Positions 11,475-37,593 are shown, counted from the first letter of the stretch. The stretch: 55,635 nucleotides of DNA from a virus (IMGVR_UViG_3300044995_000318:1-55635), one strand, 5' to 3'. A program made the numbers and translations. The notes: generated from the sequence alone by a model not told the origin.

Positions 11475-12077
11475 ATGCGACCATTACCATTCAGCGTTGA
11501 AGAAGCTGCAGCCCTGATTGGCGATCCAGATACTTTCGCCACGGTTCTGCACATCATTATTTTATCCGCTTATGGGGAAGAAGTTTACGGTGACCCGGAA
11601 AACGATATCCCTCCCATGGATATATTGGAAATCATCGCCAGACTTGAAGAAGATTTTCGAACTTCTCTGCCTGTGGAAAACGAAAACCGAATTAACGCAA
11701 TTCGGTTAGCGGTAAGCACGGACGCCTTTTATGAAGAACCTGAAGTAATGGCGGCTATATCTTCTTCGCTTTATAATGGTGATCTGGATGACATTGTGAA
11801 TGGCTTTTTGGAAGACGTTACGATTCCTGAAATTTTATGGGCCACATACGAAGTCGAATTAAATAGGGAAGAACCTTCGGAATTTTCTCCAGCCTGTTTA
11901 AGATTTATTGAAAAGCAAATCGAAGAAGAACGGGAAGAACATATAGATGAATCGGTAAATACTTTACCGGAAATTCTCCCATACTACGCTAAGTTTGTGA
12001 ACGCTCAGAAGGCCCTGCTGGAAACCCAGTTGGCTAAGCTTGGTATATCCCTACCAAGCTCCTTTGCAACAGACTAG
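11475..12077 (+). CDS. acidic hypothetical protein
   Basis: ATG 3 nt after the previous stop; 200 aa ORF. Confidence 0.75.
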   Translation: MRPLPFSVEEAAALIGDPDTFATVLHIIILSAYGEEVYGDPENDIPPMDILEIIARLEEDFRTSLPVENENRINAIRLAVSTDAFYEEPEVMAAISSSLYNGDLDDIVNGFLEDVTIPEILWATYEVELNREEPSEFSPACLRFIEKQIEEEREEHIDESVNTLPEILPYYAKFVNAQKALLETQLAKLGISLPSSFATD

Positions 12078-12080
12078 TTA

Positions 12081-12095
12081 TTTGTGTTATATATA
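12081..12095 (+). promoter_or_regulatory. putative phage promoter motif TTTGTGTTATATA
   Basis: The same 13-mer occurs at 52593-52605, with variants near 37407 and 38599; it resembles an extended -10 element. Confidence 0.5.
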
Positions 12096-12239
12096 TTTGC
12101 ACGGTCCTTTGTTGGCTGTGCAAAGAATAGGACCATTATTCCTATTCTTTAGTAACCGAAAAACTCGGTTACAAAATTGTCCGGGCTATTGGCCCGGCGA
12201 TCAATAACAATCGACTGATTACTTATTTTTAAGTGTCAG
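12096..12239 (+). ncRNA. putative structured RNA or 5' leader (five consecutive hairpins)
   Basis: Stems at 12096-12124, 12122-12150, 12152-12172, 12181-12197 and 12215-12239; G-U wobbles favour the + strand. Confidence 0.45.
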
Positions 12240-12264: not shown

Positions 12265-12453
12265 ATGAGAGTAAAGAAGAATGATCTGTTAAGTATTGCA
12301 GGCATGGATAAAGGTAAAAAAAGCGGTTTGGTTGCTGCTGGGTTAAAGCCAACTAAGAAAATAACGTTTAAACAAGAATACAAAAATCTTGAGAAGATGG
12401 TTAAGCTTAAAGGCAATAATCATGGTTTTGGTAAATGGCAAGCAGCCATTTAA
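12265..12453 (+). CDS. small basic hypothetical protein (62 aa)
   Basis: ATG preceded by TAAGG, downstream of the hairpin leader; its stop overlaps the terminase stop (TTAA). Confidence 0.45.
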   Translation: MRVKKNDLLSIAGMDKGKKSGLVAAGLKPTKKITFKQEYKNLEKMVKLKGNNHGFGKWQAAI

Positions 12454-14837
12454 CCAGAAATCACAGGGCCAGTAAATAAGGCATCAAGTCCGACATAGTC
12501 TTGTCCAGCCAGCAAGGCGTTTAAAGAATCTTGAATTCCTTTGTCTTCGACTAGTGGTTCATTACACAAAAGTCGACCTATGACAAAAGCAAAGTTAACT
12601 GCATGTAAAGTATCATCAGGTTTGGCTCCGTGTCTTCGGTAACGAAAACTGGTAGTTCCGGAAGCAGTTTCCGTAGGCACACGATAAAGGTTCATAAAAT
12701 CTTCCAGATAAGTACTAGCTTCGGCCCAAGAATAACACCTAATTCTTGGGCCGTCGCTATGTTTTATTGCTTCATAAAGGGCGGTAATAGATTCTGTTCT
12801 ATTAAGAGAATACATGTTGTAAATTTGATGTTCCTTATCTACCAAACTGATGGGCGCTGAATTTGGTCCTGTGTAGTAAAATATAATATGTCGATTAGCG
12901 TTAATTTTAGGATTTTCGCGAAGCAACATATTGTAAGCTGCCCCAACACCAAAGTCAGTCCCAATGGGTCCGCCTCCCAAATATTCATGATCGTTAGCAA
13001 TTGCCGAAGCTATTTCCCGGTAATTCATACCAGAGTAGCGAGCCATATGAATGATATCGAATTTGTTATCGTATCTTAACCCTAAAACCGCATGAACTGT
13101 GTAAGAAACCTTTGATTTTTGATCTGGTAAGAAATCGGAACCACCCCAGTCACATCCGCTGATAACATAACGATAAAAACCTTGTCGCGCTTTTTTCTGT
13201 AAAGTTTCTCTCGAATCTTCTAAACAACACATCCGTTTAAGTTGCTCTAAGGTAAGTTCTCTAGCTCCTTCCTCGGTAGGAATACCCATAATTTCTTGTA
13301 AAAATTTTTTACGATCTGCTGTCATGAAAGATCGATATATTTTTGCCCATTTAACCTGATTCTGGACATTATCCGGAACAATAATTTGTGGAATATGCAA
13401 TCCACGTCGCCCTGCTTTATACATGTTTTGATCGGCATGAACAAAATCCCCATCGGTAACATCAAGTAAACGTCCTGTGTATGGACAAGTCGGACCTTCA
13501 GGTTTAAAAACCCTTAAAACATCATCGGGGTCTCCGCAGTTAATCCAATGTTTGCCGTCTCTGGCTCGCATCATCCAAACCCCTCCAGAACTTTGAATGT
13601 ATCGACTTTCTAGAGGGGTATCGACGGTAACGGAAGTTCCGCTGTAAATTGTTATGGGAAGTTCAGATTGAGCTTGTGTTTGTTCAACTTCAAGCTCCAA
13701 CTCCGGATCAAAAAGTTGATATTCATCATAAAGAAGCTCATCCGTAGATTTACCACGAGCATCTTTTGCAGAACTTAAGATTCGGAGAAGTTCTACTTTG
13801 GAACCGTTACTATATTCTTTTAGGTTCAAATTCTGTCGGCAATGAGGCGAAGTTTCTGGAAACCTAAAAGCACGTTCCATTTCTCTAAACCTACTGGCGT
13901 ATGTTTTAACGTGCTCGGTAAACGGGGCTATGTAGAGACTTTTAAAATTAGGTAGTATATGGCTATTAATAAGTTGGCGAGTGATAAGCGCCGTAGAATT
14001 ATGAGAAAGGATACCGCTGGTGTAATACAAATGTTCTGGAGTGTCCACTTCAAAGTCAAACATAGGAACCCAAGTAGTTTCTTGAGTTGGTTGCTCGACC
14101 TGTTTAACCAGTGAAGGACCATCAACTGTTTGGACCATATCTCCAACTTCAATATCTTGCACCCAAACTTGAGCGCCATCCGCCCGCACTACAATATGCT
14201 TACCGGCTGCATTTAACTTATACTTCTCAGTAACCAATAGCCACGGAGCCATTTTGTAAGTTTTAAAAGCCCGCTTCAAAAAATTAAACCCGGTGGGGGT
14301 TCTAACTTTGATACGGCCACTTTCAATGTAAACAGATTTATCAATATGCCAGCTAGAAGCCGGTATTTCGCCAGGCTTCAATTCAGGTTCTTCGGCCTGC
14401 ATACTTAAGCAAAGAGCAAATAGTTGCTCTGCCGTCATGATTTTAACCGGGCCTTCGTCAACTATAACTTCATGTAAAGTATTGCAATCAAAACACTTAC
14501 CTATTTGACGGCTGGCTCGGATAACTAAATAGCCACCCACAATAAAATCTAGCATGGAAAACACAAAAGGCCGGGTTCGGAAGGAAAGCGGCTGCGTTTT
14601 TGGATAAGCAGGGAAAAAATAAGGAACAAGCAAGGCTGGGTTAAAATTACTAAGTTTATAGAGCTCTATTAAATCTTTGTTCCTTCGTTTTGAAATTAAG
14701 TCATCCTTGTCAGCGCTATCAGAATATTTTCGGATACGCTCGGCAATAATGTTTAATCGGTTTTTAAAATCAGGATCGTGTCTTAGTCGGTAATAAAGAT
14801 CGTTCTGCATACTTGGTATAAGAAACAACCTTGCCAT
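12450..14837 (-). CDS. terL: terminase large subunit, intein-containing
   Basis: Walker A RASRQIGK|S is interrupted by an intein; Walker B ARGKSTDELLYDEYQ; nuclease motifs GCDWGG, GTDFGVG and PDDTLHA. The start could be 14810. Confidence 0.88.
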   Translation of the reverse strand: MARLFLIPSMQNDLYYRLRHDPDFKNRLNIIAERIRKYSDSADKDDLISKRRNKDLIELYKLSNFNPALLVPYFFPAYPKTQPLSFRTRPFVFSMLDFIVGGYLVIRASRQIGKCFDCNTLHEVIVDEGPVKIMTAEQLFALCLSMQAEEPELKPGEIPASSWHIDKSVYIESGRIKVRTPTGFNFLKRAFKTYKMAPWLLVTEKYKLNAAGKHIVVRADGAQVWVQDIEVGDMVQTVDGPSLVKQVEQPTQETTWVPMFDFEVDTPEHLYYTSGILSHNSTALITRQLINSHILPNFKSLYIAPFTEHVKTYASRFREMERAFRFPETSPHCRQNLNLKEYSNGSKVELLRILSSAKDARGKSTDELLYDEYQLFDPELELEVEQTQAQSELPITIYSGTSVTVDTPLESRYIQSSGGVWMMRARDGKHWINCGDPDDVLRVFKPEGPTCPYTGRLLDVTDGDFVHADQNMYKAGRRGLHIPQIIVPDNVQNQVKWAKIYRSFMTADRKKFLQEIMGIPTEEGARELTLEQLKRMCCLEDSRETLQKKARQGFYRYVISGCDWGGSDFLPDQKSKVSYTVHAVLGLRYDNKFDIIHMARYSGMNYREIASAIANDHEYLGGGPIGTDFGVGAAYNMLLRENPKINANRHIIFYYTGPNSAPISLVDKEHQIYNMYSLNRTESITALYEAIKHSDGPRIRCYSWAEASTYLEDFMNLYRVPTETASGTTSFRYRRHGAKPDDTLHAVNFAFVIGRLLCNEPLVEDKGIQDSLNALLAGQDYVGLDALFTGPVISG
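13998..14495 (-). mobile_element. mini-intein (166 aa, no homing endonuclease) in the terminase P-loop
   Basis: Begins C-FDCNT after GK; ends MFDFEV...LYYTSGILSHN followed by Ser(+1). Confidence 0.9.
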
Positions 14838-15645: not shown

Positions 15646-16224
15646 ATGAGTGAAACAACAAAAGAAAAAGAAATTCCATCGCTGGCTGAAGAAATAGCTA
15701 GCTTTATGGAATTAAGCAAAAAAGGTTATAGTTTTGTTTTAGCTACAGATGGTTCCGGTTGGCAGGATGGGTTTGGAGGGGGTTGCTCGGTAGTTTTAGA
15801 TATTAATAAAGGTAATATTTATTATAGGTTTTTTGGAGCTTATGGAACAAGCGTGGAAAGATCAGAATTTGAAGCTCTGCTTTATGGGCTAGAATCCATA
15901 ATGACAGAAAACGGTTGGTATAACGGATGCAGTCTTAATAATCTTTTAATATTAAGACCAAAAGTGCTTTGGATTACAGATAGAGAATCTTTAGCTTTAA
16001 GCGTTAAAATCAATCCAGCTACAGGACAATCTTATTATAAAAGAAAAGCATCTCCTGACTTGTGGGCGAGATTTGAATGGTTTGAAGAACGTTTTGAAAT
16101 TGATGCAAAGCACATTAAACGCATGACCTCACCCATGCAAAACTTAGCGGACAGACTAGCTTCCGAAATGAGAACATTAACAAAAAATTACGGCGAAACT
16201 CTCATTGCGGATAATGTTATTTAA
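15646..16224 (+). CDS. rnhA: ribonuclease HI-like protein
   Basis: Catalytic D-E-D-D pattern: ATDGSG, ERSEFEAL, WITDRE, HIKR...QNLADRLA. Confidence 0.8.
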   Translation: MSETTKEKEIPSLAEEIASFMELSKKGYSFVLATDGSGWQDGFGGGCSVVLDINKGNIYYRFFGAYGTSVERSEFEALLYGLESIMTENGWYNGCSLNNLLILRPKVLWITDRESLALSVKINPATGQSYYKRKASPDLWARFEWFEERFEIDAKHIKRMTSPMQNLADRLASEMRTLTKNYGETLIADNVI

Positions 16225-16230
16225 AAACTA

Positions 16231-17358
16231 ATGAAAATAAAAATATTGCATTCAGCGGATAACCATTTGATGGACCGCCATTTAACAAGAATTGATCGTG
16301 CCGATGATTTCCGAGCAGGCATGCGGCAGTTTGTAGATAAAGCGATTGAGCTGAAAGTTAACGCCGGAATATTGGCGGGCGATGTATTTAATAACCGTCG
16401 CCCTAGCCCAGCCAACGTGCAATTTATGGCGCAAATGCACGAAAGATTAAAACAGGCCAACATCCCTGTTTATTGTGTGCGTGGTAATCACGACTACACA
16501 GACCCGAACTGGGTAACGGCATTGTTTGCGGAAAGTGATGCTAAAGCAGGTTTTTTAGGTAGTGATTATCGTCGGTACGAAATCCCATGCGGAGAGGGTC
16601 AAATATCGATTCTTTGTTTGCCCTACATGCCGAAAGATGAGCTGCTGGCTTATTTTAAAAATAACCCTCAAAAAGCCGATGTGGTTGTTTGGCATGGAGC
16701 TATTAAAGAAATGACTGGGTTTCCTATGGATTCGGCCGTATCCTTGGACGAACTCCCTGTCAATCGCTTTCGATACTGGGCTTTAGGCGATATTCACAAG
16801 AGAACTGTTGTCGAACGAGACGGATCAGTTCTTTGCTACCCTGGACCAACAGAAATGTGTTCCAAAGACGAAGATTTAGAAAAATCGGTTACGCTTGTCA
16901 GTATAGGTCTAACCGGATCAGTGGAAATCGAGCATATTCCTATTAAAACCAGAGCCATGCGTTGCTATCGGTTTACCACGGAAGAAGATTTAGAAAATGC
17001 GTTGGTGGAACTAGCGGAAATTAAAAAGACCGCTCCAAACGTGATGGTTTTTGTAAGATATAACCGTGGTATACCACGGGTGTTTGCTAGATTGTCTGCC
17101 CTACTTGACCCGGATAAAGCGATCATTCGCGCGGAACCGTTTAATCCATTAGCGGCTGATATCAATGAAGTTAAAAAATTCGACGCAGAGCATTGTCTTA
17201 AACCAGAAGACTTCTTGGGCGAATTTATTACACCGGGCACCGAACTCTACACTTTAGCTAAAGCTCTTATTAATCCAGAAGCCGACGCAAAAGATTTGGT
17301 GTCTGATTACGTATTCAAAGCTATTCAAAATTATGAGAATAAAATCAATAAAAATTAA
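16231..17358 (+). CDS. sbcD: SbcD/Mre11 metallophosphoesterase nuclease
   Basis: HSADNHL, AGDVFN, GNHD, HG and ALGDIH motifs. Confidence 0.92.
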   Translation: MKIKILHSADNHLMDRHLTRIDRADDFRAGMRQFVDKAIELKVNAGILAGDVFNNRRPSPANVQFMAQMHERLKQANIPVYCVRGNHDYTDPNWVTALFAESDAKAGFLGSDYRRYEIPCGEGQISILCLPYMPKDELLAYFKNNPQKADVVVWHGAIKEMTGFPMDSAVSLDELPVNRFRYWALGDIHKRTVVERDGSVLCYPGPTEMCSKDEDLEKSVTLVSIGLTGSVEIEHIPIKTRAMRCYRFTTEEDLENALVELAEIKKTAPNVMVFVRYNRGIPRVFARLSALLDPDKAIIRAEPFNPLAADINEVKKFDAEHCLKPEDFLGEFITPGTELYTLAKALINPEADAKDLVSDYVFKAIQNYENKINKN

Positions 17359-19885
17359 AGAATTTGGTCGCCACGCTTTGCTTGATTTAAATATAGATGC
17401 AGGCGTGATTGGTGTGGTTGGTGTTAACGGTTGCGGCAAATCTACTTTATTAAAAGCAATCGAATTCGCGTTTACTGGGCTGTTGGAAGATGCTGCCGAA
17501 ACATATGTAAGAAACGTCGGAACTCCAGACGCAGCTTCTAATGCATCTATTGAGTTATCGTTTATTAAAAATGGTATTGAAGGAAGAATATTTCGACAAA
17601 TAGGTAAAACGACAAAAAGATTACTGACCTGGAATGGCACCGAATACAAGTCAGCCGCAGATGTAGAATCGTGTCTTCGAGAAATCATCGGGGCGGATAA
17701 ACAGGCTTTGTCTAATGCCGTGTTTATTAGCCAAGGAGAACTTGACCGTCTTCTGTTCGGTAGTCAAGTAGAGCGCGAGCAACTTTTCGTTAAGTTGTTG
17801 CTGCTATCACATTTAGAAAAGATATCGGAAACGGTTATTAAAGATCAGATCAAAAGTCTATTAGGAGGGACGACTAAATTTGAGGCTGTTATGGAAGAAA
17901 TTGCTACTCAAGAATCGGAAGCTGCAGCCACAGTGCTCTCTTTAAAGGAGACTCTTAAAACGTCTCCAGATCATTCTAAATCGCTCCAAGAGGCTTCTGA
18001 ACTCTTGGAGAGTGTAAAGACTCTCGAGCACCTAAACAACCAGCTGGCTGACGCTTTACGCAACAAACGTGAAGCTGAAACCAAACGACAGTCCTCTTTG
18101 GGTGCAGCTGGATTCAAAGGACTCGACGCCATTGAAAAAGAAATCGAAAATCAATCCGCTCTGATCGCCTCACTCGAGCAGAAAATGCAGAGTGCCGTCG
18201 GCAGAGCTGAACTAGAGGAACGTGCTCGCATAGCAAAAGAAAGTCTTGCCGCCCATCAAGCCCAGTTAGAAGCTGAACGTCTGGCTCGTCAAAAAGCATT
18301 GCAAAACCAGCTGCCGGAAGAAACTCGTAAAAGCTTATTAGAATTATTAGAGAAACATAGTCTCTATACCCGCCTTAATTCAGAAAGTGAACAGCTGGCT
18401 GCCCAGTTGCAACCTCTTGCTATTCAAGAAGATGAGTTAAGGAAACAAGTTTTGGAAGAACAATCAGAAGAAGCTCAAAAAGCTTTAGCAGATAAAAAGG
18501 AACGTCTCAAAAAACAAGATGCTGATATTGCTAATCTTGAGCTAAAAATTGCCGTTTTAAAACCCACACTAAAAAGTGCACCTTTAGGAGTAGGTTATAC
18601 CGAATGTCCTATTTGCGGCACTTCTTTAAAACCTGGGTTTTTGACTGAAGAAAAGTTGACCAAACTTAAATCAGATTTGGATGCTAAAATTGAAGCCCGT
18701 GATAAGTTGCGTAAAGAAATCGAAGAAATCGATACAAAATTTAGAAACATATCAGGCCAGCTGGCAATCACCGGAGCGCAGGTTAAACAAATTAATAATC
18801 GCCTTTTGGAAGTCGTTAGCCAGATGGAAGAAATCGAAGCAGTTGTAAATAATTTTGATATTAACGCTGCCAAAGAAAAGCTATCTGCTCATGAAAAAGC
18901 AGTAATTGAATTGTCGATTCATACCGAACAAAGATTGGCGGATCTTCAATCGCAAATTGAATCAACTAAATCTCAATTAGATAGTTTAGAAAAAGAGTTG
19001 GCAGAAACTCCTGCAATCGAGCAATCGACGCAGGATGAAATAAAACAAAAAATCGCCAACACTAGGGAAAAGCTCGAAAAAGCCTCTCAACTTAGAAAAG
19101 TTGTCATGGCTTTTGAAGCAACTATTGAAACTTCTGAAAAATCGATTGAGCAGCTTACAAAAAGTATTGCCGTTATCGCTAAAGCTAAGGACCAACAAAG
19201 GGACGCTTTGTTTAAGTCTATTAGCAAACCAGAAAATTACCAAGATAACGCAGAGTTTGTGCAAGCCATTGTTGCTCAACTCAATTCGATGCAACAAAAA
19301 CGTGCTATTCTAGAAGGTCAGTTAAAACAAGCTACAGACGCATTAAATGCTATTATTGAACGCAGAAAAGATATTGAAGCTCGCATTGCTAAAGAACAGT
19401 TTAAAAAGGATTTAGCTAGACAGTTAGAACTACTATCCAATACATTTAACCGCAAAGGTTTACCGTTAAAGTATGTTAATTACAGATTTGCCCAATTAGC
19501 AGAATTAACAGCAGCAAATTTATCTAAATTAGGAGCTAACTTTACCGTTATACCAGATGATGAAAAATCTGTATCGTTTAAGTTCAAACGGCTGGATTCT
19601 GCTGAAGAATTTTACATGGGACAGGAAAAGCTCAGCGGAGGTCAACGAGTTCGACTGACCGTAGCTTTCCTTTTAGCCGTGCAGCAACTCATCATTCCGG
19701 ATGTTGGTTTATTAATACTAGACGAACCTTCGGTTCATCTGGATCAAGAAGGCACCGAGAGTCTTGCAGAAATGCTTGCTTCTATGGGCGAACAGCTTCA
19801 TGATAGCGAAGCTCAGGTTATTGTATGTGACCATAACACAGCCCTTGAACCTGCATTTCAAAAACTGGTTAAATTAGGAAATTAA
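17333..19885 (+). CDS. sbcC: SbcC/Rad50 SMC-like ATPase
   Basis: Walker A GVNGCGKST, Q-loop ISQGE, zinc hook CPICG in a coiled coil, signature LSGGQ, Walker B LILDEP. Confidence 0.93.
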   Translation: MRIKSIKIKEFGRHALLDLNIDAGVIGVVGVNGCGKSTLLKAIEFAFTGLLEDAAETYVRNVGTPDAASNASIELSFIKNGIEGRIFRQIGKTTKRLLTWNGTEYKSAADVESCLREIIGADKQALSNAVFISQGELDRLLFGSQVEREQLFVKLLLLSHLEKISETVIKDQIKSLLGGTTKFEAVMEEIATQESEAAATVLSLKETLKTSPDHSKSLQEASELLESVKTLEHLNNQLADALRNKREAETKRQSSLGAAGFKGLDAIEKEIENQSALIASLEQKMQSAVGRAELEERARIAKESLAAHQAQLEAERLARQKALQNQLPEETRKSLLELLEKHSLYTRLNSESEQLAAQLQPLAIQEDELRKQVLEEQSEEAQKALADKKERLKKQDADIANLELKIAVLKPTLKSAPLGVGYTECPICGTSLKPGFLTEEKLTKLKSDLDAKIEARDKLRKEIEEIDTKFRNISGQLAITGAQVKQINNRLLEVVSQMEEIEAVVNNFDINAAKEKLSAHEKAVIELSIHTEQRLADLQSQIESTKSQLDSLEKELAETPAIEQSTQDEIKQKIANTREKLEKASQLRKVVMAFEATIETSEKSIEQLTKSIAVIAKAKDQQRDALFKSISKPENYQDNAEFVQAIVAQLNSMQQKRAILEGQLKQATDALNAIIERRKDIEARIAKEQFKKDLARQLELLSNTFNRKGLPLKYVNYRFAQLAELTAANLSKLGANFTVIPDDEKSVSFKFKRLDSAEEFYMGQEKLSGGQRVRLTVAFLLAVQQLIIPDVGLLILDEPSVHLDQEGTESLAEMLASMGEQLHDSEAQVIVCDHNTALEPAFQKLVKLGN

Positions 19886-19891
19886 ATATTT

Positions 19892-20380
19892 ATGTTATTG
19901 GACTTGCGCATCAAGGTTGAACAGCCATTTCTAGGGAACAAACGAACTAGGGAACAAGTTCGCAGGTTTCAAAAAGAAGAATTACCTGATTCTCACTTAA
20001 TAATCATTGACAGTGTTCAATGGTATTGGGCTTTGCAAGAAGCTGCAAAGTGTCTGAATCTTGATGTCAATGTCCATTGCATACGTTTTAAAAAAGGGTT
20101 CCGAGCGCCGACTCTTGTTTTATACACTCGACGCTGGTATCATCAAAATTCTGATAAACGACAAGAGGAGCAATTCGAATCCATCCGAGAGGGTGCCGAA
20201 TTGTCCATTGAATTGATTCTGTTAAGCACTCCAGAACCCGGTCAAAACACTGGGAAGGTGCCTACGGTTGAGGAAGTTGAAAAACTTTTTCAGTTTATTG
20301 GGGAATCACTGGGGCTTAGCCCTTGGGGTTCAAAGTTTGGTTACGGTAGATTTCGTGTTTTACACCTCAAAAAAATTTAA
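19892..20380 (+). CDS. stand-alone RAMP superfamily (Cas7/Csm3-like) protein
   Basis: RAMP motifs in canonical order: LRIKVEQPFLG, IIIDSVQWYWALQEAA, ESIREGAELSIEL, and C-terminal G-rich loop GLSPWGSKFGYGRFRV. Confidence 0.72.
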   Translation: MLLDLRIKVEQPFLGNKRTREQVRRFQKEELPDSHLIIIDSVQWYWALQEAAKCLNLDVNVHCIRFKKGFRAPTLVLYTRRWYHQNSDKRQEEQFESIREGAELSIELILLSTPEPGQNTGKVPTVEEVEKLFQFIGESLGLSPWGSKFGYGRFRVLHLKKI

Positions 20381-20392
20381 ATTATTAAACCT

Positions 20393-21844
20393 ATGGGTTT
20401 ACCCGCTGAAGTGGAAATCCTATTGGATGATTCCGCCATCCTAGTTGTCCCGTCATTTCCTGAATTAGAAAAAGTTCTTAAGTATCAGGTCAAAAAAATT
20501 GAAAACAAAGAAATCAAAAGGTCCACGGAATATCTTTACAACGAAATTAAAGATTATTCCGGGTTAAGGGCTATTCAGTTACATCAAGGTTCTCTGCAGC
20601 GCGTAATTAACCGCTGCAGAGAGCTGAATGTTGTTACACATGTTCACGATCAAAGGTTGGAGTTTCCCAAGCCCCAGCTAGATAAAATGTTTGGTTTTCG
20701 ATTCAGCCAAAAAGATTTGCTTACGAAATTTCTTCTTATGAATAGGAGCGGCTTATTAGCCGCTCCAACTCGTTACGGGAAAACGACTTGCATCATAAAT
20801 ACGTTGAGAGCATATCCGGGGATTACGACTGTGGTAACTGCCCCTGGTAAAGATTTGGTCCGACAACTCTACGCGGATATTAAACAAAGTTTTCCGCATC
20901 GAGATGTTAAAATGATAGGGGCGGGGTCCACCACAAGGTATCCATCTGAAGATATTACCGTATGTAGTATGGATAGTTTAGAAAAATGTGACCACGGCAG
21001 AACTCGCCTCGTGTTGGTGGATGAGCCTCATGCTTTAGTCACAGATTCTAGAATCCCGGAATTTGTAAAGTTTAAGTATGCCCGAAAACTTGGTTTTGGA
21101 GCCACGCTTAGTGGACGGTTTGACGGTAGAGATCTGCTCATTGAAGCCCTTATCGGGCCTATTCTTGCCGAACGTACTTATAGAGAAGCAGTTGCAGAAG
21201 GAGCTATCTGTCCTTTGAAGGTTTTCTTTTTGAATATTGATGTTCAAGTCAATTCAATGGACAACCGAAATACGATTTACGGGCAGAATCTATTTCGCTC
21301 TTACGAAATGGGCAAAATCATTCGCTACATCAGCATGGAGATTTTACCACCGGATTGGCAAACCCTGATTTTCATAAAAAATGAGGTGCAGGCCAATATT
21401 CTCCAGAAGCTGATGGGCGAAGATCATGTCATTGCGATGGCCAAAAAGTTGACCAACAAAGAACGGGAAGAGTTGATGCGCAAGATGAAAGACTGCACAA
21501 TCACTCGTTGTTTGGCGTCCGACATTTATGCGCAGGGTGTTACTTTTCCAGATGTCAAAGCTATCATAAATGCCGCTGCTGGAGGAGGTTACACAAGCGC
21601 AATACAAAAACCAGGAAGGTTGGCTGAAGTTCGTCCCAACAAAAAATGTGGCGTAGTCATTGACTTCATGTTTAGAAGTTTTCAAGATACAGAAGACGCA
21701 GACATTGAAGGCAGGGGCGGTTTCAACTGCATGCAATACGATTCGCAGAGCAGGTTGGCTGCCTACCAAGAAAAAGGATACGAAATATTCTTTGCGGATT
21801 CGTTGTCCGAACTGGATCGATTGATCCGAAAGGAGGCGTTTTGA
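20393..21844 (+). CDS. SF2 DExH helicase (UvsW/Rad25-like)
   Basis: APTRYGKT, VDEPH, GATL, QGVTFP and IQKPGR motifs. Confidence 0.88.
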   Translation: MGLPAEVEILLDDSAILVVPSFPELEKVLKYQVKKIENKEIKRSTEYLYNEIKDYSGLRAIQLHQGSLQRVINRCRELNVVTHVHDQRLEFPKPQLDKMFGFRFSQKDLLTKFLLMNRSGLLAAPTRYGKTTCIINTLRAYPGITTVVTAPGKDLVRQLYADIKQSFPHRDVKMIGAGSTTRYPSEDITVCSMDSLEKCDHGRTRLVLVDEPHALVTDSRIPEFVKFKYARKLGFGATLSGRFDGRDLLIEALIGPILAERTYREAVAEGAICPLKVFFLNIDVQVNSMDNRNTIYGQNLFRSYEMGKIIRYISMEILPPDWQTLIFIKNEVQANILQKLMGEDHVIAMAKKLTNKEREELMRKMKDCTITRCLASDIYAQGVTFPDVKAIINAAAGGGYTSAIQKPGRLAEVRPNKKCGVVIDFMFRSFQDTEDADIEGRGGFNCMQYDSQSRLAAYQEKGYEIFFADSLSELDRLIRKEAF

Positions 21845-22491
21845 ACGAACAGCAACAAGATATTAGCCCGGACCCTGAATTGGTGGCTCGGGAAATAAGG
21901 GCTTGTTACATCGCTAAGCGTAGCGCTGAACTTAAAAAACCGTACCGCCTAAGTGCACGGCACGATAAAAAAGAATATTGGATGAGGGCGGCTGAGCTAT
22001 GCATACGCTTGAAAGCCAACCCTAAAGATTTTATCGATGCCGTCCTTGAAGCCCCCAACGGAAGTAAACCTGTGTTTGCTAATATGCTTTTCGGTAATTT
22101 TGCCGAGAACGCATATAAAAACAAAATGGAGCTGCTTAAAGAGGGGATGGTTGATCAAAAAGACGATGAAGATCGGTACTTCGATGACGGTATGTTACCT
22201 TCCGCCAAGCTGTGTCTGCTTTTAAAGTTTGCTCTTAACACCCTGTATAACATAAGTGGGACTATTAGCATGGTGGAAAAAAATTTAGAAATAATGCGGT
22301 CGCCTTTTACGGACTACCATCCCGCTGTTCGTGTGCTTCTTGCCTACCCTGATCATATTGTTATGGAAAGGTACGGCGAAGCGGCCAAGAATTATTTCCA
22401 AAGTAATCCAGGTACTTTGGAAATTGTTAAAAAAATGCAACTTCCAGTAGATAAAATTTTATCATGGCAGAAACCGACCCAACAGCCTTAG
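21841..22491 (+). CDS. hypothetical protein (possible helicase-associated factor)
   Basis: TTG start with AAGGAGG SD; overlaps both neighbours. Confidence 0.7.
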   Translation: MNEQQQDISPDPELVAREIRACYIAKRSAELKKPYRLSARHDKKEYWMRAAELCIRLKANPKDFIDAVLEAPNGSKPVFANMLFGNFAENAYKNKMELLKEGMVDQKDDEDRYFDDGMLPSAKLCLLLKFALNTLYNISGTISMVEKNLEIMRSPFTDYHPAVRVLLAYPDHIVMERYGEAAKNYFQSNPGTLEIVKKMQLPVDKILSWQKPTQQP

Positions 22492-23873
22492 TACACCAAT
22501 TGGTGGACGATAACCGTCCTTGGTTTGAAGGCTGCGTTATTGGCTACTTAGCATTATCAAGAGCATATTTTGAAAAGGTAAAAAACGTGTTATGTGTAGA
22601 TAAAGATTCTGGTGAATTTTATCCAGACTTTTCTACTGACATAGATAACGCAATTTACCAAGCCATATGCTCGTTTTATAATACTTTTCAAAAATCAAGT
22701 TATGTTAATAAAGAATCGTTTCGTTTTTATTTGGAACAAGTAGCCGCAAAGGGAGATTGGATTGGAATGGGAGAAGTCGACGCAGCTCTTCAGCGCGTGG
22801 CGGAATTTACAGAAGTACCCGTTGACGAGCTAGAAACGCTTATGGAAAACGGATACACATACTGGTTAAAACGCCGTCGCACTGAAGAAGTTGTGCGTCG
22901 TTCTTCCATACTCAATCTTTTACCGGAAACACTGGCGGAAGAAGTTCGCGCCCATATTAAAGTCATTGAAAGACAAAAAGAAAATGACACTTATGAGTTT
23001 GGGCACGGAACTTTGTATCCCCAACCTGATATTTTCCGTATTGGTACTGGGCTAAGTGATTTGGATATTTGTATCGGTGGCGGTTTAGGTCAAGGAGAAG
23101 GTACTTTATTTATTGGGGCGCAAGGTTCTGGAAAAACAATTATTGCTTGTCAAATTGCCGCCAATATTGCTGCCCATTCAAAGCATGTGCTTTTTATTAC
23201 AACCGAACAACGCCACCGAGATTTGGAACTTCGTATTATATCCAATAGGTGTAATATTCCTTTTGATCGTATTAAAGATAACTTTCGTCCTGACAGGGAC
23301 TTAAGTACAGTAGAATTTGAAAAATATTGTAACTTAGTAGAAACACTAAGAGATTATTTACATTTTAAAGACTGGATGGAAGATCGGGCAAGATCGGTAA
23401 TCACTGATCTTGATATGGAGCTAGATAAAGTAGAAGACAAATACGGTAAGGTGGACTGCATCATCTTGGACTGGATTGGCGGGGCTTTAGGATCGGAAAG
23501 TATAAAAAATCCTGAAGCCATTCGCCATATTTACCAAGCTACCGCAGACAAAATGGCGAGTATTGCCAGTGACCGTAATATGGTGTCGGTAAGTTTTGCG
23601 CAGGCAGCAATGGGGCTGTGCTATAACAAAAAACGCATCGACGCCACTATGCTAGCCGAGTGTAAAAACATGGGACGTAATATGACGAATGTTATTGGGA
23701 TTAGCGCTCTTACAGAAAAAGAAAATGATGACAAAGAAGCTATTTACTTAGTAGATCAAATCTTTTGGGTCTCCAAAGCTCGGAAAGGTGAAAATAAACA
23801 AATCAAGTTCAAACGAGAATATCGTTATCAGCGTGTAAGATGCGGAGACGATAAACAAAATATTAATTATTAA
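22464..23873 (+). CDS. dnaB: DnaB-like replicative helicase
   Basis: GTGLSDLD, Walker A GAQGSGKT, FITTEQ, IILDWI, FAQ and KAR motifs. Confidence 0.88.
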   Translation: MAETDPTALVHQLVDDNRPWFEGCVIGYLALSRAYFEKVKNVLCVDKDSGEFYPDFSTDIDNAIYQAICSFYNTFQKSSYVNKESFRFYLEQVAAKGDWIGMGEVDAALQRVAEFTEVPVDELETLMENGYTYWLKRRRTEEVVRRSSILNLLPETLAEEVRAHIKVIERQKENDTYEFGHGTLYPQPDIFRIGTGLSDLDICIGGGLGQGEGTLFIGAQGSGKTIIACQIAANIAAHSKHVLFITTEQRHRDLELRIISNRCNIPFDRIKDNFRPDRDLSTVEFEKYCNLVETLRDYLHFKDWMEDRARSVITDLDMELDKVEDKYGKVDCIILDWIGGALGSESIKNPEAIRHIYQATADKMASIASDRNMVSVSFAQAAMGLCYNKKRIDATMLAECKNMGRNMTNVIGISALTEKENDDKEAIYLVDQIFWVSKARKGENKQIKFKREYRYQRVRCGDDKQNINY

Positions 23874-24167
23874 AAATAATAAAAATAATAAACTATTTTG
23901 GTCCAATGAAGATGGATGGGTAGATTTCGAAAGCGCTACTATCTTTAGATAAGGAGAAGAAAAATTTTTAATCTCCACATAGAATGTTCTTAGTTTTTAT
24001 TAGAGCTTTCTAAAGTAGTGTCTAAGCTGTCCAAAAATATCGTAAGCTGTTGAAAAAGATTAGTTTGTAAAAGTCAATTATTTTTAATAATTTAAACATT
24101 GCAAAAGTTTAATAGCGCAAATAATTACAAATATTTGTTTAATAATTTTGCGCCCGTTTAAAAAATA

Positions 24168-24196
24168 TTGACCGTGTAAGCATGTTCTACTAGGTT
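24168..24196 (+). promoter_or_regulatory. putative sigma70-type promoter
   Basis: TTGACC-17 nt-TAGGTT with an AT-rich upstream tract. Confidence 0.45.
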
Positions 24197-24360
24197 GCCA
24201 TACCCCAAGCGTATTGCATGCTTGGGTTAGGAAATCAATCCGAGTCGGAGGCTTAAATTTTAATAAGCATCCGACCACTGCTAGATCAAGAAGAGACACC
24301 GGCTCCGATTAGATCGCAAAAGCAGGTATCAGAACAACCCGGTAGGAAATTGTTGAACGC

Positions 24361-25959
24361 ATGAATACGAGCAGCGTAAAACCCACTTGCTCCCGTCGGT
24401 TATCTCACCGACTTCAAAATCAAACCGATTACCCTGAATATAAGTGCCCTAAAGGCTACCATGTGGTCTATAGGGAAAAGCACGACAAGAACAACCCATA
24501 TACCGTCATTTCAAATAAACCCATCAATGACGAGAACTTGTCGGCGGAGGCACTCGGCGTATTAGTTTATATTATATCTAAGCCAGACAACTGGACGATA
24601 TGGAAGTCTCAAATCGCCCATCGGTTTGGAATGGGTCGGCATAAGATAAACCGGATCTTCAAAGAACTAGAAGAGGCCGGGTATATGTTTGAGGAGCAAT
24701 CTCGTCAAAGTTGGGGCGGGTATGACTTCTCCCGTAGGGTTCTTTTTGAAGCTAGCCAGCTTTTGGATAGCGCAAAAAACGACGATTCGTTTTCTCATGC
24801 CGTTGCTGAAAATCCGCATGCTGAAAATCCGCATGCTGAAAATCAGCACCTAGTAAGTAACCATGTTTGTGCAAAAAATACTGAAGAAAAAAAATCCCCC
24901 AAACCCCCTTTCTTCGCTCCGCTCGAAAGGGGGCTGGATTTTTCTTTTGTTGAACAAAAAGAGGAATCCAAACAAGAAGTCTCAGAAAAGCCCAAAAAAG
25001 AAGAGATATGTTTAGTTGATCTCGAAGAAGATGAGATTGAAGCTTACTATCAGCAAGGACGTGAAGAACTCATGGCCCGACTTTGTCCAAGTTCTGAAAG
25101 CGAAGCAGGACAAGCCCGATGGGCAGAGAAAGCCAAAAAGATTGTCCCAGTTGATGCTGAAGCTTTGGTAAAATCAGGGGCAGTCAAATTTCCGCTTCCC
25201 CCGGCTGATGTCCCTGCTTCCCGGTATTGGGCAAGAGCAGGTATGATCCTCGCAATCCCGGAAGCAGAACTTTTCCGGAAAGCTTCCGGTCATGATTGGG
25301 ATTACAAATCAATGCGTATGTTTTTACACCTATGGAAGAAAGGAAAAATCAATCCACCCCGAGTCCGTCGTTGGATTCGTAGCCCTGAATTCCCGGAAGA
25401 GCCTCTAGTGTATGTTCTTAGGAAGATTGAAAAAATCATGACAGGAGAAGACTATGTAGGGAACTTTAAGTTTTTTGTTAACAATCTTAAAGACGAGGTA
25501 GAAATCTTTTGCTTTCCGGATCGAGGTATTGTAAAACAATCTTTGATCTGTATTGAAGATCTTAAAAAAGCAGGTATTTTTGGAGTTTCCGCGATTAGAC
25601 GTAATTGGTTATTAGGTGTTTTATGCCACAGGCTAGGAATGGAAGAAAAAGGAATACCTTGGAATCAGGATATGAAGGATATGTATTTGGAGTCTTATGC
25701 GTTGGATGCGATGGCTCAGTTTTCAGCGGATGAATATGTAAGAGACCTATGGTTTGAAGCTCAGGACTTTTTAGGACTTACCGAGGAAGAAAAAGCTGAT
25801 CTGCCTAATATTATTAGAGGAATTATTAAAAAATTTGTTAATAAACTTGAAAAAGAGGCGTACAAATTGGAGCAAGAAGAATGGTTAAAGAATCACGAGC
25901 AACTGAATCAATGTTTGAAGATGTTCCAGCTCGAGTTAAGCGGCTCGCCGAAGCCTTAG
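24361..25959 (+). CDS. phage replication initiator-like protein (N-terminal winged helix)
   Basis: PYTVISNKPINDENLSAEALGVLVYIISKPDNW...KELEEAGY is typical of lambda-O-like initiators; internal direct repeats follow this domain. Confidence 0.7.
   Translation: MNTSSVKPTCSRRLSHRLQNQTDYPEYKCPKGYHVVYREKHDKNNPYTVISNKPINDENLSAEALGVLVYIISKPDNWTIWKSQIAHRFGMGRHKINRIFKELEEAGYMFEEQSRQSWGGYDFSRRVLFEASQLLDSAKNDDSFSHAVAENPHAENPHAENQHLVSNHVCAKNTEEKKSPKPPFFAPLERGLDFSFVEQKEESKQEVSEKPKKEEICLVDLEEDEIEAYYQQGREELMARLCPSSESEAGQARWAEKAKKIVPVDAEALVKSGAVKFPLPPADVPASRYWARAGMILAIPEAELFRKASGHDWDYKSMRMFLHLWKKGKINPPRVRRWIRSPEFPEEPLVYVLRKIEKIMTGEDYVGNFKFFVNNLKDEVEIFCFPDRGIVKQSLICIEDLKKAGIFGVSAIRRNWLLGVLCHRLGMEEKGIPWNQDMKDMYLESYALDAMAQFSADEYVRDLWFEAQDFLGLTEEEKADLPNIIRGIIKKFVNKLEKEAYKLEQEEWLKNHEQLNQCLKMFQLELSGSPKP
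24804..24848 (+). repeat. 3 x 15-bp direct repeat (putative iterons)
   Basis: TGCTGAAAATCCGCA twice plus TGCTGAAAATCAGCA. Confidence 0.85.
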
Positions 25960-27128
25960 CAAAAATTCACGGTCCCACAAGGATAGCGAAGGAAAAACAT
26001 GGTTATCAAATCTACATGGCTAGCCCGATTTGCCTCGAGCGAGACGGTCGTAAAGAGTTGAGGTCTAGACACTTAGCTGTGAATGCTGAAAGGTATTTTT
26101 TGATAGGTATGTATAGTAAATCAAAGGGTATTATTGATGCGGATAAGTCAGCCATGTGTATGAAGACTGGTAAAATTTATCGGGTGTCGGAGCTTTTGCG
26201 GATGCGCCCCATTAAAGAACGGGGCTTATCCATGGAACCCGATGGTGCTTATGTGACTCTACCTAGAAGGAAAGATAATGTTTTAATTAAAGATGCTAAC
26301 GGTAACTTAATCCCCGATCATCCGGGGCAAGTCGTTGGGATAGAACATCTTGATAAGAATCATCAGGTTTGGGAATTTTTACATTCCCGAGGATTTTATG
26401 ATGCACAACGTTTAGTGGATCATATGGGGGCTTCTTATTGTGAACAAGAAGCTCCCGAACAAAGAGGAGGACATTATTATCGTCGTTTAGTTAATGGTTT
26501 TAAGGATACCCCTCAAGGACGTTTGATCCTGTATGCTTATGTTGGTGGCGTCCAAGTTGGATGGCAGGCCCGTTTGTTAGAATTAATTGTTGACGACACC
26601 CACCATTTAGTATGGCATCCATATAGATCGATATGGGAAGTCTATCGTGTGAAAGAAAATGGAAATTGGGTCGTTCAGCCCGATTTTTTACCAAAGAATG
26701 ATAAAGAGGACGATTTAAAGTCAGCAAGTAAGTATAGGACTGCAGATGGGGCGCTTCGTAATAACATGCTTATGGGTTTTGATGCTTCCGTTAAATGGAA
26801 TAAAGAAAATCGTGAACCTGGTCGTCGTTTTGTTTTCTTAGCGGAAGGTCCATTAGACGCCGCTAGGTTGGGTGTTCCAGCGGTTGCTTTTATGGGAAAA
26901 TATTTAGCTCCCGAACAAGCAAAGCTGTTGACTTCCAACTTTGATACGATCATCTTTGTTCCCGACAATGACTCTGTAGGAAGAAAAGCAGTAAGTGATG
27001 TTACGAAAATGTTAATAAGAGCTAGGCACGTGATGGTATGTCCTCCGGACGATAAGTTCAAAGACGCAGGTGAAATGCCACAAGAAGTCGCAGATGAATT
27101 TGTTAAAAAGATAATAGCTCGATTATGA
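25881..27128 (+). CDS. dnaG: DnaG-like DNA primase (TOPRIM)
   Basis: GRLI...VGWQAR, KY, FLAEGPLDAA, FVPDNDSVG and KDAGE motifs. Confidence 0.85.
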   Translation: MVKESRATESMFEDVPARVKRLAEALAKIHGPTRIAKEKHGYQIYMASPICLERDGRKELRSRHLAVNAERYFLIGMYSKSKGIIDADKSAMCMKTGKIYRVSELLRMRPIKERGLSMEPDGAYVTLPRRKDNVLIKDANGNLIPDHPGQVVGIEHLDKNHQVWEFLHSRGFYDAQRLVDHMGASYCEQEAPEQRGGHYYRRLVNGFKDTPQGRLILYAYVGGVQVGWQARLLELIVDDTHHLVWHPYRSIWEVYRVKENGNWVVQPDFLPKNDKEDDLKSASKYRTADGALRNNMLMGFDASVKWNKENREPGRRFVFLAEGPLDAARLGVPAVAFMGKYLAPEQAKLLTSNFDTIIFVPDNDSVGRKAVSDVTKMLIRARHVMVCPPDDKFKDAGEMPQEVADEFVKKIIARL

Positions 27129-30100: not shown

Positions 30101-30298
30101 TATGACTCGATTGTTACATTCTGCCCTATGGAAGAAAGGTTTAAGGTAATGGAACTTCACCAACGTTTCATGGTGGACGAAAATAAATGGACTTACCACG
30201 GTCGGGAAATGTCATACCCGATCGATACAGATTTGGTTTTCGCGTGGTCGTGGAAACCAACCAAAGAAGAAAAAGAAATACTAAACAAAAGGAACTAA
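27125..30298 (+). CDS. polA: family A DNA polymerase with N-terminal UDG-like domain and 3'-5' exonuclease
   Basis: UDG family-4-like N-terminus; exonuclease motifs SVDCE, GHHISAD and YACYDV; TETGR; motif A SDYQTAEIR, motif B RSAAKVGNFSSAYG, motif C LYDS. Confidence 0.92.
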   Translation: MSEEKLITGEDENLPPGVVKVPLVVGTTRRYDGTLFVAGQGPMPADVMFVSTALLEEEAEEFAETFSGIKIKSKPRYLKGPAGTMFKDCALSNGIDLDQCYYTALIKYLLPRSNRLKPTKQQLAASMPCLVEEIAKVKPKVIVALGKHVFDMLYPMKLKLSDIECGWFWSKRFNCRIFPMPNPVQLILKPDYLEKFHVNFKELRRMLLSLKGVEVDTVKTNYRVIYDSNDLRTLVQQLKDNQYSVISVDCEWSGRNHVDGKLRSIQLCWAPGEAAYVRFMDDQKNYVFDISYKEAGAILGEYLNKPHVKYIGHHISADFPWMYHVLGLEYYNKCLMDTEYAQQCIDEYSGLGLERLSVQYTDCGRYDLDLLLWCKENKVSEEDGYGLVPDEIIIPYACYDVDVPFRSYPFLFAELEKQDLLDYYYDIFLPFVTNIFTDFTLFGLPIDKKKLDELRSLFTYVRNRLSVILQRKVKQEAEIFLVNFLNEVSNNNEEQVIEILNDLFLNNVEKAFNSAKRLVGADKVSKLLPLWNHYLEADNFNIRSGPMMRRWLFDVKGMKPIKSTGNKERGTPSIPWEKVETFPPDRQKEYTPATDKQTLTILAEQYQDDLLKLLLQLNAVGNLCKAFLKEAEVDEEGNLIKENGIHYWIASDGRIHCQYSATETGRPRTWKPNCLNWPKWVNDSITAGVKRVIESDYEEGVLPKEFERYRTERIPSLRSCVAAPEGWCMVESDYQTAEIRGLAFISGDERLIRIMTEPDPQFGFVLLPGDDKPTIVRLNYAEDCGIPKDAQIPDLIMAVVKDGKVIRKVSESELLRNDDGTLKHPKADLHWSLAEMTYEKPRELMNPDKHRSAAKVGNFSSAYGATGATLERKIEADTGIKPEKGTGDKLLKALAARQPIATSFLLSLEEAPINPGYLRAASGRIRHFKTHPEYVSDKVSYKLKKSLHSSMGREARNFYFQESVAATAARAANKLNDYFKANNMQARVGIVLYDSIVTFCPMEERFKVMELHQRFMVDENKWTYHGREMSYPIDTDLVFAWSWKPTKEEKEILNKRN

Positions 30299-34117: not shown

Positions 34118-34662
34118 GTATTCCTGATTACGATACTATTATAAAAAATCAAGTTGTTTGTTTAATATGCATTGGTAGTAACAGAGATGGAAAATTTGTT
34201 CATGCTGAATCTTTATTAGATATTTTAAATAATGATAATTTAGAAGTGTGGTTTGTTTTTTCTGATAAAGAAGTGGTAAAGCTATATAGAAAAGATTTTG
34301 ATAGTTTAATAAATTTTTGTTTTGCGGTGCGTGATTTTTGTTTTGAAATACAAAGCTCTCGTGCTTTGGGTGTTGTCTTTGCTGCGATAGAGCCTGATAA
34401 GCTATTTAGGACTATGATGTATTGGGCACATTTAGGAGATGGCAGCAACATTTGTGATCATATTTTTATTCATGACGTTGTTAATATAATTTATGGACCG
34501 CATGCTTATAGAATTTTAACAATGCAGGAAAGGTCCAATGCATTTAATGCATGTGCAAAACTAGGTTTAAATAATCAAGAGGTTTTGACAGGAGACGAAA
34601 ATATCGACAGTATTATCTCCTTGATTATTAGATTTTTAAAACGTAGTGCCAAAAATGAGTAA
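34114..34662 (+). CDS. hypothetical protein
   Basis: ATGA coupling to the upstream gene. Confidence 0.65.
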   Translation: MSIPDYDTIIKNQVVCLICIGSNRDGKFVHAESLLDILNNDNLEVWFVFSDKEVVKLYRKDFDSLINFCFAVRDFCFEIQSSRALGVVFAAIEPDKLFRTMMYWAHLGDGSNICDHIFIHDVVNIIYGPHAYRILTMQERSNAFNACAKLGLNNQEVLTGDENIDSIISLIIRFLKRSAKNE

Positions 34663-37392: not shown

Positions 37393-37425
37393 GCAATAGA
37401 TATTGTTTTGGTGTTATATATAATT

Positions 37426-37593
37426 GTGAACACCAACATATCTTGGTGGGCATGGTCTTTATTGACTTTGTTCGCCGTGGTTTATGGGCTGCCCTTTCTT
37501 TGGGCAGCCCTTTGTTTGTTAATAAATTTGTTACCTTTGTTATCGTTGGTTGTTCCCATTTGTTTCTTCATTGGGGCAAATAAAAATAAATAA
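37426..37593 (+). CDS. small membrane protein
   Basis: Probable GTG start at 37426; almost entirely hydrophobic with a basic C-terminus. Confidence 0.5.
   Translation: MNTNISWWAWSLLTLFAVVYGLPFLWAALCLLINLLPLLSLVVPICFFIGANKNK

Follow-up and report, generated by a model that had tools for sequence, protein, structure and literature searches.

What does a Cas7-like RAMP protein do in a phage when its gene stands among replication genes with no guide array beside it? This question is raised by the viral contig IMGVR_UViG_3300044995_000318:1-55635, in which an open reading frame (ORF) of 162 aa at 19892-20380 lies between the genes for an SbcC/Rad50-like ATPase and a superfamily 2 (SF2) helicase. 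Throughout, the window means the whole stretch of DNA that was analysed, which is the whole IMG/VR record of 55,635 nt, with a CheckV completeness of 30%. The first-pass annotation of this DNA regarded the gene as a CRISPR-less Cas7/Csm3-like RAMP and offered several uses for it, namely an RNA-guided system, a replication accessory factor or an anti-CRISPR decoy. Since a Cas7 fold is found here in a fixed replication block without an array, the protein seems to have a job other than the known RNA-guided defence, and the accessory-factor reading is the one that the evidence favours. With a probability of about 0.55, we regard the protein as an array-less RAMP that was recruited as a single-stranded nucleic-acid-binding subunit of an SbcCD-helicase module in the phage replication and recombination block.

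Fold and family of the RAMP protein

The ORF lies 6 nt after the stop of SbcC (19885) and 12 nt ahead of the ATG of the helicase (20393), and the coordinates, length and spacings of the first-pass annotation are correct. The four RAMP hallmarks that it described are present in the same order, with the motifs VEQPFLG, IDSVQWYWALQEA (just loosely similar to the Csm3 helix), ESIREGAELSIELIL and GLSPWGSKFGYGRF. Across 104 family members, the best conserved parts are the G-loop and helix 1. G137 and G152 are found in all 104 sequences, G141 and G146 in 102, S143 and F154 in 99 and R153 in 98, and position 145 is aromatic in 103; in helix 1, W44 is kept in 93 members and A51 in 87. The near-invariance of the G-loop in so many members means that the motif is not due to chance.

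An AlphaFold2 model of the protein was built from an alignment of 15 sequences and reached a pLDDT of 88.6 and a pTM of 0.83. Its layout is a strand (2-9), a helix (41-54), strands in 64-110, a second helix (126-140), a loop (141-153) and a final strand (154-161), and DSSP assigns a long hairpin (75-83 and 90-98) which carries the conserved residues R80, E93, F95 and E96 and may form the thumb of the RAMP fold. When the model was compared with PDB by Foldseek, there were 71 matches at E ≤ 1e-3, and all of the matches listed are CRISPR effector entries; at the top are type VII Cas7 (8z4j_J, E 1.3e-6) and Csm3 (6xn3_F, TMq 0.68). In the VIA structural search over 48,161 chains, 27 reached Z ≥ 8, led by 6s6b_I (Z 11.7, root-mean-square deviation 3.0, 148 residues aligned), followed by 9g9a_G (Z 11.5) and the Csm3 chain 6ae2_B (Z 10.8). 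Ranks 1 to 41 are all CRISPR entries, and the first non-CRISPR protein comes at rank 42 with Z 6.1. The ESM Atlas holds an independent model of the protein, which has the same structural neighbours, with a match to a PF03787 RAMPs cluster at TM 0.69. A search of predicted viral structures gave just three matches at E ≤ 1e-3, with a protein named RAMP superfamily protein at the top. As modelled, the 162-aa protein is a single-RRM RAMP fold of the Cas7/Csm3 type with the G-loop before the last strand. The fold assigned in the first-pass annotation has thus withstood the fold search that was proposed there as a check, with CRISPR entries filling the top rows of both searches.

The order of strand 1, helix 1, hairpin, helix 2, G-loop and last strand is common to the phage protein and the Cas7 group (Csm3, Cmr4, type VII Cas7 and Csf2). 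On the other hand, the matched chains of that group have 180-330 aa compared with 162 aa here. Csm3 and Cmr4 carry a catalytic Asp after strand 1, whereas no conserved acidic residue was seen by eye at this position in the phage RAMP. It also differs from the Cas7-group effectors in that no array and no other cas genes were found in the window.

An exhaustive profile search gave 310 clusters of relatives at 50% identity, 233 of them with E ≤ 1e-10; a word-indexed search gave 14 relatives. The ESM Atlas neighbours of the protein are virus-only clusters, and a scan of 185,579 species genomes with a single peptide pattern found one copy, on a contig of a gut metagenome-assembled genome (MAG). No model of Pfam, PHROGs, NCBIfam or PADLOC matches the window protein, and none of the 104 relatives is significant in Pfam, NCBIfam or PADLOC; the stray matches among them have E values of 0.011-0.05, to Cmr3, Csm3 and Cmr6. 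The RAMPs model PF03787 found nothing at E ≤ 0.1 in the window and four complete relatives. In GenBank phages, tblastn with RAMP returned no match, and with the helicase as query the identity is at most 25%, the best match being Bacillus phage G with a different gene neighbourhood. Fused or longer forms of RAMP were not found, which is weak evidence, and the longest among the 150 representatives listed has 256 aa.

A C-terminal tail of at least 15 aa is present in 53 of 160 members; 28 of these tails are net acidic and none is net basic. In P0035, P0041, P0052, P0076, P0077, P0083, P0089 and L006:7788-8660, the acidic tail is replaced with a C-terminal extension of about 60 aa (LP.EF...HR...FLGH.LT.LSR.ELLAV).

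Gene order and inheritance of the block

Conservation of the SbcC-RAMP-helicase order had been proposed as a test in the first-pass annotation, and the order is kept in every informative relative. All seven RAMP-anchored viral loci contain RNase H and/or SbcD, SbcC, RAMP, the helicase and DnaB in this order, with RAMP identity down to 31%. In 21 metagenome or MAG loci, two of which repeat viral contigs, SbcC is upstream in 16 and the helicase is downstream in 16, and the five misses on each side are contig ends or flanks of less than 900 nt. When the loci were anchored on the helicase instead, RAMP was upstream on the same strand in 41 of 42 (7 of the 42 repeat earlier contigs), with SbcC in all 41, and the sole miss has 14 nt of upstream sequence.

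RAMP is single-copy in the window and in the complete genomes G003 and G004. Its identity to the window copy (25-43%) tracks that of the helicase (38-56%), as indicated by a correlation coefficient r of 0.59 over 35 loci. The related contigs measure 21-212 kb, with four complete genomes of 186-204 kb, and the RAMP loci originate in hot-spring mats and fresh water, and also in a MAG from an animal gut. The DNA of the window itself is contained in hot-spring and microbial-mat metagenome runs; no RNA dataset is among the sequencing runs listed as containing it. From these comparisons, RAMP behaves as a fixed, vertically inherited single-copy core gene of the replication/recombination block in a large clade of uncultured phages of about 100-210 kb.

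In the window, the block belongs to a run of same-strand genes, whose features are as follows, each with the basis of its name.

From 15080, where the same-strand run starts (it ends at 30298), plus strand: unknown protein, 164 aa (ORF list)
15646-16224, plus strand: RNase HI-like protein, 192 aa (phrog_531, E 0.0015)
16231-17358, plus strand: SbcD/Mre11-like nuclease, 375 aa (Metallophos, E 1.1e-11; phrog_100, E 6.8e-19)
17333-19885, plus strand: SbcC/Rad50-like ABC ATPase, 850 aa (SMC_N, E 6.6e-16; SbcC_Walker_B; phrog_77, E 2.5e-46)
19892-20380, plus strand: minimal Cas7-like RAMP, 162 aa, ATG start (modelled single RRM, beta-hairpin 75-98, G-rich loop 141-153)
20393-21844, plus strand: SF2 helicase, XPB/Rad25-like, 483 aa (ResIII, E 2e-10; Helicase_C, E 2.3e-9; phrog_16, E 6e-32)
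21841-22491, plus strand: conserved all-helical protein between the helicase and DnaB, 216 aa (no family match)
22464-23873, plus strand: DnaB-like replicative helicase, 469 aa (DnaB_C, E 5.4e-13; phrog_19, E 3.5e-26)
23874-24360, no strand: AT-rich spacer of 487 nt preceding the initiator-like gene
24361-25959, plus strand: helix-turn-helix (HTH) initiator-like protein (HTH_36 and replication-initiator PHROGs)
25881-27128, plus strand: TOPRIM primase-like protein, 415 aa (TOPRIM-like C-terminal half, motif seen by eye)
27125-30298, plus strand: family A DNA polymerase (phrog_17, E 2.2e-61)

The RNase H, Mre11, Rad50 and helicase neighbours named in the first-pass annotation are therefore borne out by family and profile matches. 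For the RNase HI-like gene, a profile of 7 orthologues matches E. coli RNase HI with E 4.6e-4, RNase H accounts for 46 of the 47 PDB matches at E ≤ 1, and D35, E74, D112 and D169 are invariant among the orthologues; judged from these matches and residues, it is a type 1 RNase H. With a profile of 11 orthologues of the helicase, the best match is archaeal XPB (E 2.4e-17), followed by Rad25 (E 2e-15). Relatives of the 216-aa helical protein are detected by tblastn in most related loci. Its AlphaFold2 model (pLDDT 87.5, pTM 0.47) has two helical halves, and it was also considered as a Cas11-like small subunit, a candidate that was rejected when the best fold match reached only Z 6.2, on one helical half; the protein may be a helicase loader. 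The ORF at 25881-27128, whose first 79 nt overlap the initiator-like gene, is presumably the primase. Further downstream are a UvsX-like recombinase, a second helicase and a Holliday-junction resolvase. This second helicase (34646-36355, 569 aa) matches the PADLOC models of DpdF (E 1.4e-103) and PsyrT (E 3.9e-80), and the PHROGs name is DNA helicase.

The relatives show signs of two kinds of insertion. In L006, a gene with a GIY-YIG-like motif, recognised by eye, lies between SbcC and RAMP, where the window has no gene, and it is probably a homing endonuclease. In at least six loci (L008, L023, L038, L039, L050 and L051), the match to the helicase is split, with 0.4-1 kb between its two parts, which suggests that this core gene has taken up an element (an intein, an intron or a homing endonuclease).

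Comparison with VIPR and the search for guides

Among the alternatives, the one that survives best is a divergent VIPR-like or RNA-guided system. A guide without a recognisable repeat, or one encoded far away, would direct the helicase and SbcCD to DNA, either to the phage's own origin, where an R-loop would prime replication, or to competing DNA. We consider it unlikely, although all characterised RAMPs of the fold hold guide RNAs, and the evidence on it comes from two sources, the similarity to Vipr and the scans for arrays.

VIPR (Viral Interference Programmable Repeat) systems, for example that of Escherichia phage SUSP1, are the subject of a group of preprints (10.64898/2026.04.26.720920 and 10.64898/2026.04.26.720927; related ones are 10.64898/2026.10.15.759431 and 10.64898/2026.10.21.760802). 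In these preprints, Vipr is a phage RAMP which coats vrRNAs, each built from 9-16 YNNGG pentamers. Pentamer vrRNAs are described for all seven VIPR types, the locus is minimal (vipr and vap) and flanked by long intergenic regions, and types III-V have nuclease or helicase accessory genes (10.64898/2026.04.26.720920 and related preprints). The Vipr cryo-EM preprint gives the G-loop and helix 1 as the primary RNA-binding surfaces, and the GGY-reading residues of SUSP1 Vipr as H17, R138, D177 (G1), W178 (stacking on G2) and R179 (Y3).

By sequence, Vipr is the nearest solved relative of the phage RAMP. A PDB sequence search with the family profile found the SUSP1 Vipr protein as the only RAMP, with a HMMER E value of 0.6-0.9. 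Profiles were also compared by hhalign, for which a type II Vipr alignment of 45 sequences was built from the SUSP1 locus. The RAMP family and type II Vipr match with 89% probability and E 2.3e-6, over 38 C-terminal columns only (helix 2, G-loop and last strand), while two unrelated control profiles gave 0.1% and 0.3%. The hidden Markov model of type II Vipr has no match in the window at E ≤ 1. Vipr W178, the residue that stacks on G2, aligns with W145, at the position that is aromatic in all but one of the 104 members. On the other hand, D177 aligns with P144 (P in 78 members, Q in 17) and R179 with G146 (G in 102), so the readers of G1 and Y3 are replaced; the G-loop is the sole alignable part in this comparison of readers, and H17 and R138 lie outside the alignment. 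A homology of 38 columns in which the G1 and Y3 readers are not kept makes the family distant kin of Vipr and not a recognisable member.

The likeness between the two extends to being phage-encoded, small, single-RRM RAMPs with a G-loop and without a CRISPR/cas context. The differences are in length (195 aa for Vipr and 162 aa here), in the segment from strand 1 to helix 1, where our model has short strands in place of the helical bundle described for Vipr, and in the genomic setting. VIPR is a two-gene conflict locus with long flanking spacers, whereas the phage RAMP is a core gene in a run of nine same-strand replication genes, with spacers of 6 nt and 12 nt and no intergenic room for a guide beside it. 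Its core-gene behaviour is also unlike that of a conflict system.

Five kinds of scan for period-5 arrays were run on the window and its relatives, with working controls, and none found one in the window. Scans for GGY/NN, GG/NNN, G/NNNN and GY/NNN in the window reached at most 23 of 36, compared with up to 25 for shuffled sequences, while the same scan scored 35 of 36 on SUSP1 and located the VIPR locus. A motif-free scan, with three fixed phases of five, recovers all four SUSP1 vrRNAs with 25-29 of 30, but its maximum in the window, in 16 and 42 related loci and in G003 and G004 is 23-24, which is within the shuffle range. An in-phase dinucleotide scan of period 5 likewise stayed at shuffle level with no array, and the pattern of seven GGYNN units is absent from the records of five relatives (four of them complete). 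These in-phase scans are blind to arrays with one-base slips such as that of G004 described below, and a slip-tolerant lag-5 scan was added. It scores the G004 array at 19 compared with 8-11 for shuffles; in the window and G003 it picked up only A and T tracts, and near the helicase-linked RAMP of G004 it stayed at shuffle level.

Other guide types and cas genes were searched for as well. CRISPR-like regularly spaced repeats were not found in the window or in G003, and PADLOC Cas models matched none of the 53 window proteins at E ≤ 1e-3 apart from a generic SF2-Cas3 similarity of the helicase at 34646-36355. The first-pass statement that the window holds no other cas gene and no CRISPR array is confirmed by these searches; partner cas genes in the relatives were searched for with PF03787 only. 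Rfam gave no family at the gathering score in the window, and no tRNA was found there. An 18-nt tandem repeat in G004, of TIGR type by its period, was rejected as a candidate when it was found to be a coding hexapeptide repeat, and the other G004 repeats are scattered copies.

Nevertheless, one relative does have a pentamer array. The complete genome G004 (204 kb) contains a non-coding NNNGT pentamer array of about 1.15 kb at L085:15019-16965, which is equal to G004:75019-76965. At intervals of 21 or 26 nt the array shifts its phase by one base, the pentamers being closed there by NNNGG plus an extra base. The array pattern has 91 matches at this site and none in G001, G002, G003 and G005. Directly upstream is a 222-aa RAMP-like ORF with the G-loop GLGQWRNSGKGQF. 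In hhalign, this ORF is closer to the helicase-linked RAMP family (66%) than to type II Vipr (14%), and no homologue of it was found in the window or in G003. From its sequence features, the locus looks like a non-canonical VIPR-type system with very short modules and no obvious tail. It is 116 kb away from the helicase-linked RAMP of the same genome, and the latter is present in 5 of 5 genomes but the array in only 1 of 5. Pentamer arrays are therefore detectable in this clade, and this one is next to a RAMP gene of its own.

Taken together, the points in favour of RNA guidance are the distant but specific Vipr similarity with its G2-stacking aromatic, the nuclease or helicase accessory genes reported for VIPR types III-V, the Vipr-like gene and array of G004, a structured spacer 3.5 kb downstream of RAMP before the initiator gene, and a genome sampled to 30% only. 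They are opposed by the absence of the G1/Y3 readers, by the core-gene behaviour and by the lack of any guide array of a known type in the window, in the 16 and 42 loci or linked to RAMP in the relatives, the pentamer being the unit in all seven VIPR types described. The RNA-guided system suggested in the first-pass annotation has not gained support from these results.

Non-coding elements and the remaining alternatives

Another alternative is that the protein regulates the replication operon, or processes its RNA, by binding RNA with specificity for sequence or structure. Such a protein could resemble RegA of phage T4, a translational repressor of replication genes, or could bind or cut a hairpin of phage transcripts in the manner of Cas6. 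Cas6 endoribonucleases are RAMPs and match our model at Z 6-7.2, the gene is in the middle of a replication operon, and a structured, well conserved leader precedes the initiator-like gene. However, Cas7, Csm3 and Cmr4 match at Z 9-11.7, clearly above Cas6, and the model has one RRM, while the matching part of Cas6 is one of two domains.

The non-coding DNA of the window adds to this. The spacer at 23874-24360 contains two 18-nt direct repeats (at 24023 and 24043) and a multi-hairpin 3' part (24165-24345), for which the RNA fold z-score is -3.1 on the plus strand and -4.35 on the minus strand. Its identity to the close relative L002 is 94%; three other true spacers reach 82-85%, and 61 nt from within the primase ORF reach 93%. 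The spacer may be an origin or a leader. An apparently conserved intergenic region at 25960-26674, shared with distant relatives, was rejected as an RNA element when it was recognised as coding sequence of the 415-aa primase-like ORF, whose DNA has 77-87% identity to distant relatives over short stretches. With this only conserved stretch being primase coding sequence, no conserved RNA element common to the true spacers of the window and the distant relatives was found, and Rfam at a permissive threshold gave two chance-level matches only in 23800-27200. We therefore hold a regulatory or processing role to be improbable.

The first-pass annotation had put forward structured units at 12096, 24204, 52614 and 55301 as RNA partners of RAMP, and none of the four could be linked to it. 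The unit at 24204 is in the structured spacer described above, which no result links to RAMP. Those at 12096 and 52614 directly follow two of the three copies of a 34-nt motif, GCAAyAgAc...TTTGTGTTATATAwwTTTG, at 12066-12099, 37393-37426 and 52578-52611, which are placed before small ORFs or hairpins. As the sequences downstream of the three copies are unrelated, the motif is probably a phage promoter. The unit at 55301 belongs to a perfect direct repeat of 127 nt (55301-55427 and 55509-55635), whose two copies are 208 nt apart and extend to the last base of the contig; it could be explained by a tandem element or by an artefact of the assembly.

The anti-CRISPR decoy of the first-pass annotation, a free Cas7 mimic that would soak up host crRNA or poison the assembly of class 1 effectors, is very improbable, for although phage-encoded Cas-like inhibitors are known and the Cas7-like fold is here in a phage without cas partners, anti-CRISPR genes are patchy accessory genes, the protein has diverged so much from every Cas7 family that their models do not match it, and such a role sits poorly with a core gene that is single-copy and always in the same place of the replication block (in 41 of 41 informative loci anchored on the helicase, from varied habitats).

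Some further features of the window lie apart from this block. The large terminase (12450-14837, minus strand, 795 aa) has a PHROG match spanning residues 294-752, which leaves about 290 N-terminal residues unexplained. Runs of a 9-nt repeat at 31364-31678, GGx-rich on the minus strand, probably encode a glycine-rich or collagen-like repeat protein. At the contig end, a gene pair at 53033-55284 matches phrog_1297 (ATPase, E 1.4e-96) and phrog_1314 (HNH endonuclease, E 7e-96).

Proposed role in replication and recombination

For the reading that we favour, in which RAMP is a single-stranded nucleic-acid-binding subunit of the SbcCD-helicase module, we infer nucleic-acid binding, oligomerisation and a partnership with the helicase and SbcCD. 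Helix 1 (W44 and W46) and the G-loop (G141-F154) would hold a single strand without sequence specificity, probably with a head-to-tail row of subunits as in Cas7 and Vipr. The bound strand could be primer or R-loop RNA, or single-stranded DNA exposed at processed ends and forks, and it would then be passed to, or shielded from, the SbcCD nuclease, the XPB-like helicase and RNase HI. The setting would be recombination-dependent replication, or the turnover of R-loops and primers. Work on RNA-DNA hybrids or on branched DNA would suit a block that encodes both a type 1 RNase H and an XPB-like helicase.

A comparison can be made with gp32/UvsY of phage T4, together with gp46/47 and UvsW. The T4 proteins gp47/gp46 are the counterparts of SbcCD, and the phage RAMP likewise sits with SbcCD, an SF2 helicase of the branch/R-loop type, RNase H, DnaB, a primase, a polymerase and a UvsX-like recombinase. 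RAMP has no sequence relation to gp32/UvsY and the folds differ; bacterial and phage single-stranded DNA-binding proteins (SSB) have the OB fold and the phage RAMP the RRM/RAMP fold, so any likeness is one of role. Acidic C-terminal tails, which recruit partners, are typical of SSB, gp32 and gp2.5, and they are paralleled in 28 of the 53 tailed RAMP members. This resemblance to the partner-recruiting tails of SSB-type proteins is a weak hint. A second weak hint is that the bacterial SSB model PF00436 has a match in only one of four complete relatives, below the cut-off.

Several points weigh against this reading. The window RAMP itself has no acidic tail. The argument from SSB is weak, as phage SSBs are diverse; the gp32 model PF08804 found nothing, and its control had no signal either. 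Synteny indicates co-inheritance and not contact, and RAMP can be separated from either neighbour by an insertion of 0.3-3.3 kb. The known members of the fold are all guide-RNA users, and for this reason an unrecognised, non-periodic guide is possible. Finally, with only some 30% of the genome in the window, a gene or array that the window lacks may still be present elsewhere in the phage.

A broader proposal, which we make only tentatively, is that RAMPs have a third way of life besides those in CRISPR and VIPR. Subunits lined up on single strands would be coupled to the XPB-like helicase, SbcCD and RNase HI, either as an ancestral job from before guides, out of which the guide-holding Vipr and Cas7 evolved, or with ordinary phage transcripts forming and resolving the R-loops that prime replication. 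For their part, the VIPR preprints argue for a phage origin of RAMPs as holders of guide RNA (10.64898/2026.04.26.720920).

We found no paper on a RAMP in an SbcCD-helicase replication block, and the text of a jumbo-phage comparative genomics paper (PMC7824862) contains neither 'RAMP' nor 'Cas7'. The family may be among the 667 VIPR systems of 10.64898/2026.04.26.720920. That survey mined NCBI, while the close relatives of RAMP come from non-NCBI sources, which counts against such a listing.

The family described here is a second phage RAMP lineage, distantly tied to Vipr, array-less and locked into the replication genes of a widespread phage clade. Its compact size of 162 aa makes the protein expressible and testable. 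If RNA is used after all, RNA guidance would be linked to phage DNA replication, with a helicase and nuclease complex already attached. If guide-free binding is true, it would show a use of the fold outside RNA-guided targeting, and would be a candidate for its original role.

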